Assembly (NCBI GenBank): GCA_944393205.1
Contig: CALXZI010000003.1
Location: forward strand, 643 to 64,642
DNA from: an uncultured Alphaproteobacteria bacterium
GTDB lineage: Bacteria; Pseudomonadota; Alphaproteobacteria; RF32; CAG-239
Length of the DNA: 64,000 nucleotides
Direction: 5' to 3'
A program made the position numbers and the translations under genes. The notes under the pieces were generated by a model that was given only the letters and a program-made list of their open reading frames with translations, did no database searches and was not told where the DNA came from. Positions 2-40,964 of the stretch are shown piece after piece (the first letter of the stretch is position 1; each line of letters opens with the position of its first letter).

Positions 2-679
2 ACAAACGAGAATCCAGCGCAAAGCGTCAAATTGCTGCCGGTAGAAAACCAGCGCTTACGCTTTTTTTCACACGAAGAGGCCAAAAACCTGCTTGACCGA
101 TTAAAAAAAGTGCGTCCGGCCGGTGCGCCCGCGCGCGGCTACTTGTATTATAAAACCTATCAGACTTCACAAATTTACGAAATGGCTTTAATATCGCTAT
201 ATTGCGGCTGCCGCGCCGGTGAATTATATTCCCTTAAAGCAAACGATGTAAATTTTGCCACCGGATTTTTAACTATTCGCAAAAGCAAAAATCATAATGC
301 CCGCAACATACCGATGCCGCAAATTGTTATTGATATGCTAAAACAGCGCTTGGAATCTTTGCAAATTACAGGGGAAGCGCCGATTTTTCAAGACACGGAC
401 GGCGGCGAACTTTACGAAGTGCCGGATTGCTACCAGAAGATTGCCGATGAGCTTTTCAATCAGGGAATAGAAGACCGGCAGCAGCGCGCTGTTTTCCATA
501 CTTTGCGGCACACATACGCCAGCTGGCTTGTTATGTCCGGCGTGGACTTATACACCGTCAAAGAGCTTATGGGACACAAAACCCTTGCTATGACGATGCG
601 TTATGCTCACCTTGCGCCGAACAAATTTACAGCAGCTATTGCCGCCCTTAATCATTCCGCCGCCGATAACGAAGATTGA
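2..679 (+). CDS. int: Tyrosine recombinase / phage integrase, C-terminal catalytic domain; 5' end cut by window edge
   Basis: Reading frame is open to the window edge. Catalytic motifs are present: HTLRHTYAS...LMGHKTLAMTMRYAHL (R, HxxR, Y). Confidence 0.85.
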   Translation, partial: TNENPAQSVKLLPVENQRLRFFSHEEAKNLLDRLKKVRPAGAPARGYLYYKTYQTSQIYEMALISLYCGCRAGELYSLKANDVNFATGFLTIRKSKNHNARNIPMPQIVIDMLKQRLESLQITGEAPIFQDTDGGELYEVPDCYQKIADELFNQGIEDRQQRAVFHTLRHTYASWLVMSGVDLYTVKELMGHKTLAMTMRYAHLAPNKFTAAIAALNHSAADNED

Positions 680-2695: not shown

Positions 2696-2926
2696 CTATT
2701 CTTCTGCATTTTCCAGCTGTTCCCTCAACTGGCGGATTTCAGCGCGGCAGACTTCCGCCGCGGCTTCGTTGGCCAAATACTTATCAAGCGCAGGCGTTTC
2801 AAGCTCCGGATGCAGCTGTTTAAGCAACCGCGCGGTTTCAAACGCAACAATGCGTGCCGAATAGTCGCGCTGCTCCAAAACATTCATATTCTGGTTAATT
2901 TTATTTTGAATTTCATCTCTTGTCAT
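2696..2926 (-). CDS. Hypothetical 76-aa helical protein translationally coupled to the DGR RT
   Basis: Start overlaps the RT stop (ATGA). No recognisable motif. Confidence 0.5.
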   Translation of the reverse strand: MTRDEIQNKINQNMNVLEQRDYSARIVAFETARLLKQLHPELETPALDKYLANEAAAEVCRAEIRQLREQLENAEE

Positions 2927-4026
2927 TTTAGGTTACTCCACAAAATTTGCCGCATTTTCCAAACAGTCAGGCGGGCATCGCGGCGTTTCATACTGCCTGC
3001 CCAACTTTCCAAGGATTGCACAAGCTCCGACTTTTTCATCTCACCGGCCTTGACTATCCTTATTTGTTTTTTAAGCTTCCGCCGTTCCGTAACAATGCTT
3101 TTCCGGCAGGGCTTTTTAATAATTTTTCCGTTCTTTACAAGGTAAAATTTTGTTTTAAGCCACTTCACCCCGTTTTTTACATGAACAATCATTGTTTTCT
3201 TTACCGATAAAATTATTTTAAGCTTTTCACACAAACGCCTTAATATATCCAAAGCCTTTATAACCGTTGTTTTGTCTTTGGCCAAAACAAAACTGTCGTC
3301 CATATATCGGCCGTAATATGCGCCCGCGCAATGTTCCGTTATGGCGTGGTCTATTTCGCTCGGATAATATATTGCGTGCATCTGGCTTGTTTCCGAACCG
3401 AGGCCAAGTCCCAAACTTCCATAAGCATCAACAAAATCGTCAATATAGGCCAAAAGCTTTTTATCCTTAAAAATGCGGTGGTATTTTTCTTTCAAAACCT
3501 CATGATTGATATTTTCAAAATACCCCTTGAAATCCACCAAAAGAGCATAACCGCCAGCGCTGTTTTTCTTATAAAACCGCCGCAGCGCCTTTATAATCCT
3601 GTCGTTGGCAAATTTGACTCCTTTGCCTTTCTGGCTGGCCGAATTATCAAACAGTAACGATTTGGTATATACCGGATATAAAATATTATGGCATAAACAT
3701 TTTTGCACCACCCTTTCATAAAATTTAACCGCCGATATATTTCTTTGCTTGCCGCGCTCACACACGACAAACCGCGAAAATCCTTTGCGCACGTCTTTGC
3801 CAGCCTGCAAATCGCGGTATAATTTTTCGGTATTAAGAAGCTGGTTAATGCTCCACCTCTGCACCGTTCCTTTCCACATAACGTGCCGTTTGGCCAAATT
3901 TGCGGCATTATACAGATTTTTTCGGTTACAAAGCACTTCAAAATTATCATATAGCTGATAAAACGCCGCCCGTTTCGCTTCACGCTTGGCACGGCGTTTT
4001 TCAAATCGTTTTTCTCTTCTTGTCAT
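2923..4026 (-). CDS. DGR reverse transcriptase
   Basis: RT motifs: VDFKGYF (motif A), LGLGSETSQ (DGR-type GxxxSQ in place of QGxxSP), YGRYMDDSFVL (YxDD). Adjacent to the TR, avd and VR-bearing target gene. Confidence 0.9.
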   Translation of the reverse strand: MTRREKRFEKRRAKREAKRAAFYQLYDNFEVLCNRKNLYNAANLAKRHVMWKGTVQRWSINQLLNTEKLYRDLQAGKDVRKGFSRFVVCERGKQRNISAVKFYERVVQKCLCHNILYPVYTKSLLFDNSASQKGKGVKFANDRIIKALRRFYKKNSAGGYALLVDFKGYFENINHEVLKEKYHRIFKDKKLLAYIDDFVDAYGSLGLGLGSETSQMHAIYYPSEIDHAITEHCAGAYYGRYMDDSFVLAKDKTTVIKALDILRRLCEKLKIILSVKKTMIVHVKNGVKWLKTKFYLVKNGKIIKKPCRKSIVTERRKLKKQIRIVKAGEMKKSELVQSLESWAGSMKRRDARLTVWKMRQILWSNLK

Positions 4027-4255
4027 AATTCACCTTTTAAGCCTTGCAGGGCGGTTGGCGGATCTATACCCCACAATGCCCCGACTTAGTGCAGGCGTTC
4101 CGCCGCGTATAGCCTGCAATGCAACTCCATATTTCAGGGGCGTATCATCGGTCATCGTCAAAGCTCATATTTGCGTTAATTACGCGAGGTTTAACATTCC
4201 TTTCATTTTATTGCACAGTGTTCGGCCGTTATGGCCTACTAAGTCGGGCAGAAAA

Positions 4256-30883: not shown

Positions 30884-30928
30884 ACCAAACAAAAAGCCGC
30901 CGGGGAATGTTCCTTGACCCCTGCGGCT
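30884..30928 (-). terminator. Intrinsic-terminator-like hairpin plus U-tract in the leader of the late (terS) operon
   Basis: On the - strand: GC-rich imperfect stem (aagccgc.gggg / cccc.gcggctt) followed by UUUGUUUGG, immediately 5' of the terS RBS. Confidence 0.5.
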
Positions 30929-30988
30929 TATTTCCAGCCAGATCATACAATCCCTAGCCTACATCTTTTATACTTTAATTCGCCCGAT

Positions 30989-31047
30989 TGTGTAAAATGA
31001 AAAAGTGTCAAATGATGTAAAATGTTGTCAAATGAGTGTAAAATAAT
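30989..31047 (-). promoter_or_regulatory. Late promoter region with interleaved direct repeats
   Basis: tGTAAAATG x3 interleaved with GTCAAATGA x2 within 60 bp, between the HTH gene and the terS leader. Confidence 0.45.
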
Positions 31048-31064
31048 TTATTAACATATTGAAA

Positions 31065-31562
31065 TTAAAAGTTTTTCATTTCATTAAGCAGCTTTTCAAG
31101 CGCCTTGCGCAAATAAATATCAAGCATTTGCCGTGTTCGCCCCAGCTTTTTGCAGACAATTTTCCACGGCAGCGGCTTTTCGCGGCAGCGCGCCGACAGC
31201 AGATCATATTCAAATTTTGTGAGCTTATTCATCAGGTTGGCATCCATATACCAGCAATCGGCAATATCAACGTTTGTCGGCTGAAAGTGCGCATTTTCCG
31301 CGTCTTCCGGCGTGTTTTCGGTGGCAATAAACAGCCACATATAGTTTTTGGCATAATCCGGCCGCCGCGGCGCAGGCAGGGCATACAGCGTTTCAAAATA
31401 GCGCATAACCTCAAATTTAACATCTTCAATCGTGCAAATTTTTCTCAACATGTCAAAACTCCCAAAAATCTCAACCGGTAAATAGACAAAAACAAGGCCG
31501 CGGCGCTCAAAACGCGCTCCTTTCCCCTTGCCGAGCCGCCGCAGGCGGAAACGCAACCGCAA
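31065..31562 (-). CDS. Putative late-gene regulator with C-terminal HTH (sigma region-4-like)
   Basis: C-terminus LPWKIVCKKLGRTRQMLDIYLRKALEKL. Sits directly upstream of the repeat-containing late promoter region. Confidence 0.4.
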   Translation of the reverse strand: MRLRFRLRRLGKGKGARFERRGLVFVYLPVEIFGSFDMLRKICTIEDVKFEVMRYFETLYALPAPRRPDYAKNYMWLFIATENTPEDAENAHFQPTNVDIADCWYMDANLMNKLTKFEYDLLSARCREKPLPWKIVCKKLGRTRQMLDIYLRKALEKLLNEMKNF

Positions 31563-31832
31563 GGTTGCGCCAAAATTGGCGCATAAAAGCGCAAATTTTC
31601 ATTTTCCTGCTTTTTAACCGGCGTAAAGGCGCAGTCTTTGTCGGGCAAAATAGCAATGCTGTCCGCAAAGGCGCGCCGACCGGTTAAAAGGTTATCCACA
31701 CAACCTGCGGAGTTATCCACAGGTTGTGCAACCTTTCCCTTTTTCCTTAACAATCCTTTTTCCTTTTCCCTGAATCCCGTCATATCCTCAAACCTCAATC
31801 CAAAACCCAAAATCTTTAATCCAACAACCTGT

Positions 31833-32055
31833 ATTTTTATTTATTTTCTTTTTTGCTTCTTTTTTCTTTTCTTTTTTTTGCCAAAGCAACCCACTGGCAT
31901 CCCATTTTTGCAAATCAGGGCAAAAATGCTGCAAAATTTGCTGATTTTTTAATTTTGCATTCCGTTGGGTTGTTTTGGGTTGCTTTGGGTTAAATTTTGC
32001 TAAAAAAATAACCCACAATAACCCAGTGGCATATTTTGGGTTATTTTGGGTTTGC
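31833..32055. repeat. Iteron-like repeat cluster (candidate phage replication origin / regulatory site)
   Basis: Poly-T/AT-rich tract 31833-31882. Five direct TTTGGGTT repeats (31965-32053), two inverted AACCCA copies, duplicated 13-mer AACCCA(C/G)TGGCAT at 31887 and 32020, and a palindrome GCAAAATTTGC. Confidence 0.5.
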
Positions 32056-32340
32056 ATTTTTCTTTTTTCCTTTGTTTTTCTTGCCGTTTTCCTGATTGCG
32101 CCGGCAGCGTTCCTCATAACGGCGAGCATTGGCATCCATCGCGTTCTTAAAGCTGTTAAACAACACGCGCGCCGCCGGCGACAGGCTTTTAACGTCAACC
32201 GTGCCATACATATTATAATCATGCATGGCAATAAACGCCTCTTTGAAAAGCGCACCGTCTTCGTCCCGCATCGCTTCCACACTGTCGGCCGGCACAACCC
32301 AGCCCGTCTTTTTTGTTTCTCTTTCCTCAACCATTTTCAA
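32041..32340 (-). CDS. Hypothetical basic protein (99 aa) abutting the iteron cluster
   Basis: ORF with Lys-rich C-terminus overlapping the last iteron copies. Confidence 0.4.
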   Translation of the reverse strand: MKMVEERETKKTGWVVPADSVEAMRDEDGALFKEAFIAMHDYNMYGTVDVKSLSPAARVLFNSFKNAMDANARRYEERCRRNQENGKKNKGKKKNANPK

Positions 32341-32357: not shown

Positions 32358-33128
32358 CTACAAATCAAAACCGAGCTGCCGCTCGTCCGTTTCCGCCCGC
32401 TTGAGGTTAAATTTCTCAAGCCGGCGGTGAATTATCTCAATATATTTCTTTTCCTTTTCTATGCCGATAAAACGCCGCCCAAGGTTGCGCGCAGCCACAA
32501 GCGTTGTGCCACTGCCGGCAAACGGGTCAAGAATCAAATCATTTTTATTGCTGAAATATCGGATAAAAGGATACATTGCCTTGAGCGGCTTTTGTGTCGG
32601 GTGTTCTGTTCTTTCGTTACCGCTGCAGATTGGCAAAAAAATATAATCGGGCTGCTGGCCGTTTTCATAATTAAAAGTCAGTTTTCCGCCGGGCTTTTGC
32701 CACATTCCGGCCACCTCCCAACCATTCATAAACTTAACTTTGCGGGCTTGCGGCACCGGATTTTGTTTTATAAAAGCAAAATATCCTTTGCACTTAAAAC
32801 CGTATTGCGACTGCAGATAATGCGACAGGAAGTTAATTCTGTCCCTGTCAAAAAAAGAAACCAGCATACCCCCCCCTTTAAGCTTGGGAACAACCGCATC
32901 AACCCACCGCTTTGTAAAATTCATAAAATCGCCAAAGCCGGCAAACTTGTCCCATTCACCAAAATTATGCGTAATCGCTTTGGCCTTACCGAATTTTTGT
33001 GCATCTCGTGAACGGGTGATTATCACCTCGTTGGCAATACCGTAGGGCGGATCTGTCAGCACCATATCAACACTGCCGCTTTGTATGGTATTCAATAACT
33101 GCAGGCAATCCCCCTCCAAAACCGTCAT
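32358..33128 (-). CDS. DNA methyltransferase, beta-class N6-adenine (CcrM/HinfI-like; N4-cytosine not excluded)
   Basis: N-terminal motif IV TDPPYG, then C-terminal motif I LDPFAGSGTT. This circularly permuted order and these motifs match CcrM (ADPPY ... LDPFFGSGT). Confidence 0.8.
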   Translation of the reverse strand: MTVLEGDCLQLLNTIQSGSVDMVLTDPPYGIANEVIITRSRDAQKFGKAKAITHNFGEWDKFAGFGDFMNFTKRWVDAVVPKLKGGGMLVSFFDRDRINFLSHYLQSQYGFKCKGYFAFIKQNPVPQARKVKFMNGWEVAGMWQKPGGKLTFNYENGQQPDYIFLPICSGNERTEHPTQKPLKAMYPFIRYFSNKNDLILDPFAGSGTTLVAARNLGRRFIGIEKEKKYIEIIHRRLEKFNLKRAETDERQLGFDL

Positions 33129-33182: not shown

Positions 33183-34100
33183 TTATCTGCCTTGCGGCAA
33201 ATCACCGTAGAAAACCGGTAAATTGACAGATTCTTTAATCGTTTTCAACTCTTCATCAATCGCCAGTTCAATCGCTTTATCAAGGTTAATAACCTCATAC
33301 CACCAGCGCACCGCGCCGTCTTTAAGCCGGTAGCGCAGGCGACATGGCAGTTGATAGGCTTTTCCGCCCTCAAGCACCGGAATCACGATAATAAACATAT
33401 TCGGCACTTTAACCGATTGCCCGCTGATGTCCGTATGCTCACTTGAAAAATTGATTGTAGCTTCACCGGTGTTCAAATCGTGCTTAACCACCGCCTTTTC
33501 ATCAGCGCGGATAGCAATACCCTTGGAAAGCTCAATCATCTTGTTGACCGGGGCATAAAAACCGCCGCAGCGCATTCTGATTTCTTTTAAGGATGCCGAT
33601 TCATTATCCGGAGCGGGCGGTTCGGCCAAATCCAAAACATTCTGCTCAATAAACATGGCAAAATCAAGCTGGCTCATGACTTCGCCGTTTTCTGCCCGCC
33701 ACGCCAGCAGCTCTTTACTGAACGGAAAAGCATAAGTTGCCTTGTGCTGCTCAAAACTTGCCTGTTCTTTGGTGGCGCAGTCAAAAACGCAGGTGATTTT
33801 CTGTTGCTTTTTATTGTAAAAAATCGCCGAATTTTCCGTTTTATAACGGTTTGCAAACTCAACAAAGCTGCAACAGGTGTGTAATTCCGTCACCCCTTTT
33901 AAGACTTCCGGCACCTGTCTTTCTTTATCAACAAAGTCTTTAAGCTGCCGAATATTCATATTCTCGGGATAAACCACCAGCCCGGCCGTTCCGGCGGCAT
34001 CCACAATCTGCGGTTTCAAAAGTTCTTCCATTGTTTCGCGCATGGCCACAATGTCGTTTCTGATTTCGTTATCCATAAATATCTTTCCTTTCTTCATCAT
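33183..34100 (-). CDS. Hypothetical phage early protein (305 aa)
   Basis: ORF in the cro-side leftward operon. No motif. Confidence 0.4.
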   Translation of the reverse strand: MMKKGKIFMDNEIRNDIVAMRETMEELLKPQIVDAAGTAGLVVYPENMNIRQLKDFVDKERQVPEVLKGVTELHTCCSFVEFANRYKTENSAIFYNKKQQKITCVFDCATKEQASFEQHKATYAFPFSKELLAWRAENGEVMSQLDFAMFIEQNVLDLAEPPAPDNESASLKEIRMRCGGFYAPVNKMIELSKGIAIRADEKAVVKHDLNTGEATINFSSEHTDISGQSVKVPNMFIIVIPVLEGGKAYQLPCRLRYRLKDGAVRWWYEVINLDKAIELAIDEELKTIKESVNLPVFYGDLPQGR

Positions 34101-34446
34101 AGGTTACCACTTCCCGCTTACCGGCAATCACATCAAACGGCAAACGCGGCTGTTTCGGATTTTCGCGACAAACGCCCGAGCCGTCCTGCGACAGCCAAAA
34201 GATGGTGCGGTTGCGCGGCTTTGGCGGATTCTTGCTTTTAACATCGGCCGTCATTGTGATATTGCCGCTGTCCAAAACAAGTGTGATTGCCACCGCAATT
34301 TGTGCTTTGGCGGCTCTCATACCGTCAATATCGCAGCGCTGTTGCAGAGCTTTCAGGGATTCCTGCAATGTTGCGGAGCAATCCGCATTAAATTGCCCAT
34401 CCTCCAGCTCGGCAATAAGGCGGCTGAAATCTTTAATTTCATTCAT
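34069..34446 (-). CDS. Hypothetical phage early protein
   Basis: ORF downstream of the cro-like gene. Start assigned to the internal Met (MNEIKDF). Confidence 0.4.
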   Translation of the reverse strand: MNEIKDFSRLIAELEDGQFNADCSATLQESLKALQQRCDIDGMRAAKAQIAVAITLVLDSGNITMTADVKSKNPPKPRNRTIFWLSQDGSGVCRENPKQPRLPFDVIAGKREVVTYDEERKDIYG

Positions 34447-34657
34447 CGTTTTTCCTTTCCTCGTTGTTGATGTTATAAAAATCGTTCGGCTCAACCTGCC
34501 CGCCGCTCCACTCGTAAATTTTTTCTACCGTTTGGCGGCCGGGTATTACCTCACCATTTACCCAGCGCCGTGCCACGCAATGGATAACATTAAAATCGCG
34601 AGCCAGATCTGCTACGCACCGGTTGGTTTGCTCTAAATATTTTTTGAGTGATACCAT
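34439..34657 (-). CDS. cro: Cro/YdaS-like HTH regulator
   Basis: 72 aa. LARDFNVIHCVARRWVNGEVIPGRQTVEKIYEWSGG resembles Cro/YdaS HTH. Divergent from the cI-like gene across an operator-rich intergenic region. Confidence 0.6.
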   Translation of the reverse strand: MVSLKKYLEQTNRCVADLARDFNVIHCVARRWVNGEVIPGRQTVEKIYEWSGGQVEPNDFYNINNEERKNDE

Positions 34658-34713: not shown

Positions 34714-34847
34714 ATAATCGTTATTTGATTATTTATTAAATTTGCTTGATGAATTAAAGAAGATTAAAACAAATTAAATATAATCATCTTGTGATTATTT
34801 TCTTGTTTTCCCTTATTTTTATTGAAAAATAATCATAAAAAGATTAT
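34714..34847. promoter_or_regulatory. cI/cro intergenic switch region with three identical palindromic operators
   Basis: ATAATC-N7-GATTAT at 34714-34732, 34780-34798 and 34829-34847 in the 216-bp AT-rich region between divergent HTH genes. Confidence 0.65.
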
Positions 34848-40877: not shown

Positions 40878-40964
40878 TGGTGCGCTAGGCCGGAATCGAA
40901 CCGGCACGGGATTGCTCCCAACAGATTTTAAGTCTGCAGCGTCTACCTGTTCCGCCACAAGCGC
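40878..40964 (-). tRNA. tRNA-Leu (anticodon TAA), type II with long variable arm
   Basis: Reverse complement folds as: 7-bp acceptor stem (one U-U mismatch), D arm, anticodon stem-loop cuTAAaa, 14-nt variable arm, T arm GGTTCGATTCC, discriminator A plus encoded CCA. Confidence 0.85.

Follow-up and report, generated by a model that had tools for sequence, protein, structure and literature searches.

We report that a cluster of short AACCCA/TGGGTT repeats in an alphaproteobacterial prophage is probably the iteron array of the prophage replication origin. The cluster lies within a 64-kb stretch (64,000 nucleotides; hereafter the window) of contig CALXZI010000003.1 from an uncultured alphaproteobacterium, at the end of the gene for a 97-aa protein of the Pfam family DUF6291. 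Judged from sequence comparison, the origin would employ a minimal initiator and rely on the DnaA of the host. The original prediction of a candidate phage origin at this site gains support from the iterons themselves, an adjoining A/T tract, host-type DnaA boxes, the co-variation of the protein's tail with the repeat, and the company that the protein family keeps. The system would be a variant within the known iteron type of origin, with a minimal initiator that lacks a C-terminal domain, comes from an uncharacterised family and carries exchangeable specificity cassettes.

The repeat cluster and its flanking elements

Eight AACCCA/TGGGTT cores, mostly 10 bp apart, are found within the 165 bp from 31888 to 32052. 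On the + strand, TGGGTT starts at 31966, 31976, 31986, 32037 and 32047, with a spacing of exactly 10 bp inside each group; four of these copies read TTTGGGTT and the first reads GTTGGGTT. The inverted copies (AACCCA on the + strand) start at 31888, 32010 and 32020, and two of them head a duplicated 13-mer, AACCCACTGGCAT at 31888-31900 and AACCCAGTGGCAT at 32020-32032, with a separation of 132 bp. AACCCAGTGGCAT is a degenerate half of the palindrome AACCCA(C/G)TGGGTT, which is perfect in three relatives (L004, L012 and L061). The remainder of the 64 kb contains 23 AACCCA/TGGGTT on both strands and no other 175-bp window holds more than two, giving a Poisson P of ~4e-15 per window, which stays far below 1e-6 once the numbers of windows and 6-mers are allowed for. 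Across the whole window, the 7-mer TTGGGTT shows no over-representation (19 found versus 14.3 expected); the signal is one of clustering. GCAAAA occurs six times and TGCAAA five times in the zone, and the spacer between the two iteron groups includes GCAAAATTTGC at 31931-31941.

Every feature that had been listed for this cluster is present, with small corrections: the inverted AACCCA copies number three and not two, the tract given as 50 nt of poly-T/AT is 48 nt long with 6 G/C, the palindrome in the spacer is only imperfect, and the 13-mer copies lie as far apart as had been stated (~130 bp). Open reading frames (ORFs) running across the repeats had been called artefacts, and such ORFs are indeed not conserved among relatives; the versions of 89 aa here, 92 aa in L001 and 86 aa in L003 are rejected as genes, with L004, L012 and L013 having stops in the iteron zone. 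A -1 frameshift at an A_AAA_AAG heptamer near the DUF6291 stop codon, judged by eye, was also rejected, as it would add only ~20 codons and is not conserved.

Next to the distal iteron, the A/T tract is 87% A+T, and its A-tract AAAAGAAAAAGAACCAAAAAGAAAAATAAA is kept nearly invariant in all 12 loci compared (described below). It forms part of the most strand-asymmetric 150 bp of the prophage (31732-31881), in which the + strand is 77% pyrimidine. From 31735 to 31880, the + strand has 5 G in 146 bases, and the gene strand reads as the A-tract followed by GGATT/GGTTT repeats with almost no C. R-loop formation, single-strand binding and an RNA-protein site are possible roles for this asymmetric segment. 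Beyond it are two perfect DnaA boxes, TTATCCACA, which were missed in the original prediction. Only three perfect boxes occur in the 64 kb, and the two here keep the same 21-bp offset in all close relatives; similar boxes are used by the probable host oriC that also falls in the window. The first box is enclosed by the inverted repeat CACAACCTG/CAGGTTGTG, which, when relatives are compared by eye, is maintained by paired changes (CACAAGC/GCTTGTG, CAAAAC/GTTTTG and CACAATC/GATTGTG).

DUF6291 proteins and the exchange of iterons

Related loci came from scans of viral and genome collections guided by the protein, from a search of metagenomes for the DNA pattern and from contig look-ups. Twelve loci were analysed and three more (L061, L062 and L063) served for a later test, all being gut alphaproteobacterial prophages; blastn at the DNA level and tblastn with the 97-aa protein gave no match among GenBank phages. 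On the gene strand, the relatives share one layout, in which the end of the DUF6291 gene is followed by an iteron group, an A+T-rich spacer of ~60 bp, a second and often inverted or palindromic iteron group, the A-tract, a C-depleted tract of ~100 bp rich in GGTT/GGAT, usually a pair of DnaA boxes at a 21-bp offset, a conserved non-coding stretch of ~230 bp and the gene for a 128-aa protein. The spacer is present in most loci and absent from short arrays such as those of L051 and L053. At least 15 loci, 50-80% identical, retain the module with its phased cores intact, and the iteron copy number varies from 4 to 19.

The expectation that the repeats recur in related phages holds for the array, though its core sequence has been exchanged. 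By unbiased 6-mer count, AACCCA occurs 8 times in the window, 12 times in L004, 19 in L012 and 4 in L053; TTACCA occurs 10 times in L001, 8 in L003, 5 in L016, 5 in L013/14, 11 in L043 and 8 in L052; and ACTTAA occurs 6 times in L051, whose iteron type is GACTTAA. Of the three test loci, L061 and L062 proved to be of the AACCCA type and L063 of the TTACCA type. The swap variants are not near-isogenic, with L016 and the window, and likewise L053 and L051, only ~70-79% identical overall.

The 97-aa protein is assigned to DUF6291 (PF19808) with an E-value of 2.8e-13 and 50.3 bits against a cut-off of 27.2. It corresponds to the 99-aa basic ORF at 32041-32340 that had been named as a possible iteron binder, with its start probably at ATG 32334. 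The first iterons supply part of the coding sequence for its basic C-terminal tail (…RRNQENGKKNKGKKKNANPK), and an AlphaFold2 model has three helices, the last of which (residues 53-87) runs into this tail (mean pLDDT 79). At every locus the tail matches the iteron: ENG/ENS endings (...NQENG/ENS) go with AACCCA, ...NQETA or ...AIA with TTACCA, and ...ASIS with GACTTAA. The iteron type tracks only the last 15-20 residues and not the protein core, and predictions of the iteron from the tail, made beforehand for the three test loci, were correct in all three. Protein cores interleave across iteron types (P0003 and P0010 are 97% identical, P0024 and P0031 92%), which indicates that the exchange happened several times. 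The comparison shows that the short iteron has been exchanged between related phages together with the last 15-20 DUF6291 codons, and this co-variation fits the suggestion that the small basic protein could bind the iterons.

A profile search of 1.8 billion representative proteins showed that most DUF6291 relatives are 200-330 aa long with the domain at the N-terminus. Their C-terminal parts include Phg_2220_C in 4 of 36 scanned relatives (best E-value 2e-30) and a DnaD/DnaB_2 domain in P0120 (TIGR01446, 29.9 bits with the cut-off at 24.95); GenBank phage proteins matched by the C-terminal domain of P0151 are labelled ‘replication initiation protein’, ‘RepO’ and ‘replication protein P’. In lactococcal theta plasmids, Phg_2220_C is fused to a Rep_3 initiator domain (PMC4490491). 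The long genes sit in replication modules: the order is repressor, cro, excisionase-like helix-turn-helix (HTH) gene, DUF6291+DnaD and DnaC/IstB-like loader in L054; ERF, SSB, DUF6291, G39P_N-type loader and YfdP in L056; and SSB, HTH and DUF6291+Phg_2220_C in L060. In the cultured Shewanella phage ZP9 (L064, OR636717.1), the DUF6291 gene directly precedes a DnaB helicase gene. DUF6291 matched no other Pfam family in our scans, and our literature searches found no paper mentioning it; the present sequence analysis links this uncharacterised family to phage replication initiators.

In the long genes, AACCCA repeats and palindromes of the AACCCAGTGGGTT type occur within the coding region, directly after a ...RN.ENG.KGGRPK motif. 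Examples are AACCCAAATAACCCAAGTGGTTT...AACCCAACAGAACCC at 5259-5330 of L054, where the 10-kb locus has eight copies and a stretch of 100 bp contains four of them, three AACCCA and AACCGAACGGTT at 5280-5330 of L056, and AACCCAAAAAACCCAGTGGGTT...AACCCA at ~870-915 of ZP9. The use of two reading frames by the cores suggests that it is the DNA, and not the peptide, that has been under selection. Among 68 family members, NG-type proteins have the linker peptides NPVGF, KPSGL or KTERF, and E[AS]G-type proteins have KANGF, which corresponds to TGGTTT...AAACCA. These conserved linkers are thus DNA sites seen in translation. The window gene, unlike the long genes, stops as the repeats begin, and its product ends after the N-terminal domain and basic tail, with no C-terminal recruiting domain (DnaD/DnaB_2, Phg_2220_C or similar).

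The origin model and rival explanations

Several features known from iteron-type theta origins are found together here, namely a cluster of repeated sites, though of a unit shorter than classical iterons, an adjacent A+T-rich element as candidate unwinding element, which ranks with the prophage's least stable sites, and, in many but not all members, host DnaA boxes. In addition, the array is directly adjoined by the DUF6291 gene, whose tail co-varies with the iteron and whose family is found in replication modules. From these sequence-level observations we infer binding, melting, use of DnaA and replication. In the model that we propose, the 97-aa protein would bind the eight AACCCA cores as a dimer or multimer, the direct cores lying one helical turn apart and the inverted cores acting as half-palindromes. 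The end of the long C-terminal helix and the basic tail would set sequence specificity; on AACCCACTGGGTT, a dimer would be expected to fit both the end of the helix and the tail into the DNA grooves at the core. The nucleoprotein complex could then strain the DNA and open the adjacent A/T tract, and the two consensus DnaA boxes would recruit host DnaA, by which host helicase and replisome are loaded. A role for host DnaA is proposed because the 97-aa protein has no recruiting domain and the phage no recognisable replication machinery: no helicase, loader, primase, polymerase or known initiator was found in the searched window phage genes or in the gene tables of related loci. The ~40-kb relatives likewise have no recognisable replication genes; where known, their upstream gene is usually a methylase, followed by DUF6291 and then the module. 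Early leftward transcription probably crosses the origin, as it does at lambda ori, since no terminator was found between the DUF6291 gene and the array; a promoter and terminator scan of the region gave counts at chance level, with none inside the module.

In a more specific form, which we regard as possible rather than probable, DUF6291 is an origin-binding domain not recognised before, two or three residues at the junction of its long C-terminal helix and the basic tail determine specificity, and tail and iterons make up a cassette exchanged to change the identity of the origin, the phage contributing the 97-aa initiator and no other replication gene and using host DnaA boxes. On this tentative scheme, the code might read NG for AACCCA, TA/IA for TTACCA, IS for GACTTAA and [AS]G for AAACCA, and the C-depleted tract and the structured element on the sense strand may take part, for example in R-loop or RNA-assisted opening or priming.

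The proposed system resembles characterised origins in part. In SPP1, the oriL direct repeats bound by gp38 (G38P) are part of gene 38 itself and adjoin an A+T-rich unwinding element (PMC6316719). The repeats inside the long DUF6291 genes follow this plan of an origin placed in the initiator gene. The window likewise has direct repeats beside an A+T-rich element at the candidate initiator's own gene, and the place of G38P is taken by long DUF6291 genes that immediately precede a G39P_N-type loader (in L056) or a DnaB helicase (in ZP9). Unlike G38P, the window protein consists of the N-terminal domain only; the repeats lie just past the stop codon and not in the gene, DnaA boxes are present, and the phage loader or helicase genes that adjoin the long forms are missing from the gene sets searched. 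In lambda, the O gene itself contains an A+T-rich region and the repeats to which the N-terminal domain of O binds, and ori, placed between cro and the late regulator within the early operon, is crossed by early transcription. The window shows a comparable order (cro-like gene, ..., DUF6291 and array, ..., late regulator, late promoter and terminator, terminase). It differs from lambda in having eight 6-7-bp cores at 10-bp spacing plus half-palindromes in place of four 19-bp iterons, and in having neither the C-terminal domain through which O recruits P-DnaB nor a P-like gene. Plasmid and phage-plasmid origins such as pSC101, RK2 oriV and P1 oriR combine one or more DnaA boxes, an A+T-rich region, direct and partial inverted iterons and a rep gene, and depend on host DnaA. 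The order of elements is the same in the window, for which host DnaA dependence is proposed. Those plasmids have 17-22-bp iterons and winged-helix Rep_3-type proteins encoded by a rep gene transcribed away from the origin, whereas here the 97-mer is predicted to be all-helical, its gene runs into the iterons, and a C-depleted tract of ~100 bp separates the A/T tract from the DnaA boxes.

A number of observations weigh against a replication origin. The cores, 6-7 bp long and 10 bp apart, fall well short of classical iterons in length. Ranked by instability among 50-bp windows of the prophage, the A/T tract comes only sixth (~2.7 standard deviations from the mean), and the DnaA boxes are ~110 bp away from it. 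In L051 and L053, which are more distant relatives, these boxes are degenerate or missing, indicating that they are not essential to the module; they also lie in and beside a conserved repeat that can form a hairpin and may act as RNA. The modelled DUF6291 fold has no significant structural match among solved DNA-binding proteins. Cumulative GC skew, which had been suggested as a check, shows no turn at 31.9 kb; it falls steadily over the leftward genes and turns at ~35-37 kb, where the direction of transcription changes, and is thus uninformative on this point. Finally, the match of tail and iteron could be simple linkage of adjacent sequences, with recombination at the conserved AIKKRN-coding sequence. 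Under linkage alone, the true binder would be encoded elsewhere and would have to tolerate or follow each exchange, and no candidate that follows the exchanges was seen in the examined 6-10 kb flanks.

Of the explanations that need no origin, an operator array comes closest, and we consider it unlikely. DUF6291 or another factor would control early read-through into a structured leader and the late regulator, with the DnaA boxes serving as a sensor of host state or a roadblock. The module does lie on the transcription path from the early genes to the 128-aa regulator and late operon, a conserved element that folds on the sense strand follows it directly, the DnaA boxes overlap the hairpin-forming repeat, and no promoter or terminator separates the parts. 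Such an array would nevertheless leave these phages with no origin or initiator, and long DUF6291 proteins with DnaD-like or Phg_2220_C domains, encoded beside helicase, loader and SSB genes, fit replication and not transcription control, as do the iterons inside the long-form gene, an arrangement typical of origins. An inactive relic, in which the linker and origin of a once longer initiator gene have decayed and become functionless after loss of the C-terminal half, would account for the long relatives holding the same repeats in-gene while the gene here stops within the first of them. A relic would be expected neither to retain 10-bp phasing nor to be exchanged with a matching tail; the conservation of the layout, the repeated cassette exchange and the presence of an identical protein in 70 blocks of a public collection speak against decay, and we find this explanation hardly credible.

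Two further alternatives would give the repeats another function in the phage cycle. Phased short repeats with A-tracts are typical of sites bound by the small terminase (TerS), and the array, with its bent A-tract DNA upstream of the terminase genes (~1.1 kb from that of the small subunit), resembles lambda cosB and SPP1 pac in this respect. A pac/cos-like packaging site is nonetheless very improbable, for the repeats follow the DUF6291 tail and not the small terminase. TerS was rejected as the repeat binder because its sequence, including the N-terminal HTH region, does not track iteron type: the window TerS is 68/67% identical to those of TTACCA-type L001/L003 and 65/61% to those of AACCCA-type L004/L012, and the N-terminal region is nearly identical in L004 (AACCCA) and L001 (TTACCA). 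A gene and a separate promoter/terminator region also intervene between module and terS, and the same repeats occur in replication genes of unrelated phages. A partition, centromere-like or other maintenance site, with two iteron blocks flanking a core and a small adaptor protein as in parC/ParR, would suit the two repeat groups around a ~60-bp spacer and the small basic protein encoded alongside. The phage integrates (it has an integrase, and a tRNA at the G+C fall), no ParA/ParM-type nucleoside triphosphatase occurs in the searched phage genes or the related loci's gene tables, and the family context is one of replication; we consequently think a partition role most unlikely.

If the origin reading is correct, it would give a function to a Pfam domain found in phages of Proteobacteria and, by nearest GenBank relatives, of gut Firmicutes, and would allow sequence-based origin annotation in a phage group seemingly devoid of replication genes. 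A compact system of a 97-aa protein, 6-bp cores and natural swaps could show how initiator specificity is encoded and exchanged, and also the minimum that a phage must encode to take over host DnaA-dependent initiation. More generally, initiator linker peptides such as NPVGF, KTERF and KANGF can be translated traces of DNA sites.

Surroundings in the prophage

The genes around the repeat cluster all run leftward on the - strand, and a non-coding gap of ~590 bp (31452-32040) separates the DUF6291 gene from the 128-aa gene, with the terminase genes following the latter (Table 1). Between the DnaA boxes and the 128-aa gene lies a conserved structured element with 62 predicted pairs, for which 94.7% of cells are paired compared with 35-47% in slid controls. 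Compensatory changes are seen at 14 pairs, and the fold is assigned to the gene strand by several invariant G-U pairs. Rfam 15 gave nothing in the region at the gathering threshold and only chance-level matches (E-value up to 5) at a relaxed one. A ~112-aa ORF over the DnaA-box and structured region, called as a gene in public assemblies, was rejected, since its frame shifts among L001, L003 and L004 and between L051 and L053.

The 128-aa protein starts at ATG 31451, and not at 31562 as the original prediction had it for its ‘HTH protein’. Its C-terminal HTH gives weak but repeated fold matches to sigma region 4, and it is a probable late-gene regulator. Downstream of its gene, the order of TTT(T/G)ACA repeats, TATAAA box and hairpin is conserved in relatives, and the sequence of the segment 30885-31043 suggests a late promoter and a terminator that would need to be overridden. 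By analogy, the protein and this segment resemble the Q/PR'/tR' late switch of lambda, a reading that explains the HTH protein without involving the iterons. The idea that the protein might itself bind the iterons was not borne out: it shows no co-variation with iteron type, being 81/80% identical to TTACCA-type homologues and 57% to an AACCCA-type one, and has its own conserved TTT(T/G)ACA sites. As a split-off C-terminal initiator domain it was likewise rejected, being unrelated to the C-terminal parts of the long DUF6291 members (hhalign probability 0.3%). The start of terS is probably ATG 30804 and not TTG 30888.

Table 1. Features of the prophage and of the candidate origin module, in window coordinates
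Feature	Position	Strand	Remark
Integrase fragment	32-679		prophage
Reverse transcriptase gene, Rfam RT-2 RNA directly upstream	2923-4253		prophage
Single ORF of 3550 aa	7253-17905		prophage, among virion genes
Strong hairpin with U-run	30885-30927	-	just before terS
TATAAA box	30967-30972	-	
Five TTT(T/G)ACA repeats, ~10 bp apart	30991-31043	-	downstream of 128-aa gene
128-aa protein gene	31065-31451	-	C-terminal HTH
Conserved structured non-coding element (RNA, or gene-strand single-stranded DNA)	31449-31735	-	between DnaA boxes and 128-aa gene
Two perfect DnaA boxes	31692-31721 (starts 31692, 31713)	+	same orientation, 21 bp apart
9-bp inverted repeat	31699-31728		encloses DnaA box 1
C-depleted G/A/T-rich tract	31735-31832	-	GGATT/GGTTT repeats on gene strand; kept in kind in all relatives
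A/T tract, 48 bp	31833-31880		poly-purine on gene strand; candidate DNA-unwinding element
Distal iteron	31888-31900		adjoins A/T tract
Central A+T-rich spacer	31901-31961		between two iteron groups; recurrent TTTTGC/GCAAAA motifs
Three TGGGTT cores	31966-31991		exact 10-bp phase
Two opposite-orientation AACCCA cores	32010-32032		10 bp apart; second within 13-mer
Iteron pair, two + strand TGGGTT cores (gene strand AACCCA)	32037-32052		10 bp apart, over DUF6291 stop codon
DUF6291 protein gene, 97 aa	32041-32334	-	candidate initiator; PF19808
N6/N4 methylase	32358-33128	-	
DUF2303/YfdQ	33183-34100	-	
YfdP-like	inside ORF 34069-34494	-	
cro-like gene	34439-34657	-	
Operators ATAATC-N7-GATTAT	34714-34732, 34780-34798, 34829-34847		
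tRNA	40881-40964		G+C falls at ~40.9 kb

The prophage extends from about position 1 to ~40.9 kb of the window and has ~47% G+C compared with ~38% in the host. Its virion and packaging genes include a T7-type portal, a large terminase and an Sf6-like small terminase, and the reverse transcriptase with its RT-2 RNA suggests a diversity-generating retroelement. Between the divergent cro-like and cI-like genes lies an immunity switch with three 19-bp operators. In the host part of the window, the rho-coaE intergenic region (58034-58441) has seven DnaA-box-like 9-mers and a sign change of GC skew nearby, and is followed by mnmE and mnmG; it is the probable host chromosomal origin, which would put the prophage ~17 kb from the host oriC. 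Related prophages sit in genomes of uncultured gut Alphaproteobacteria. The identical 97-aa protein was found in the 70 blocks mentioned above, with the same local gene order in the three loci fetched (L057-L059), and the prophage appears to be common in sampled gut metagenomes.

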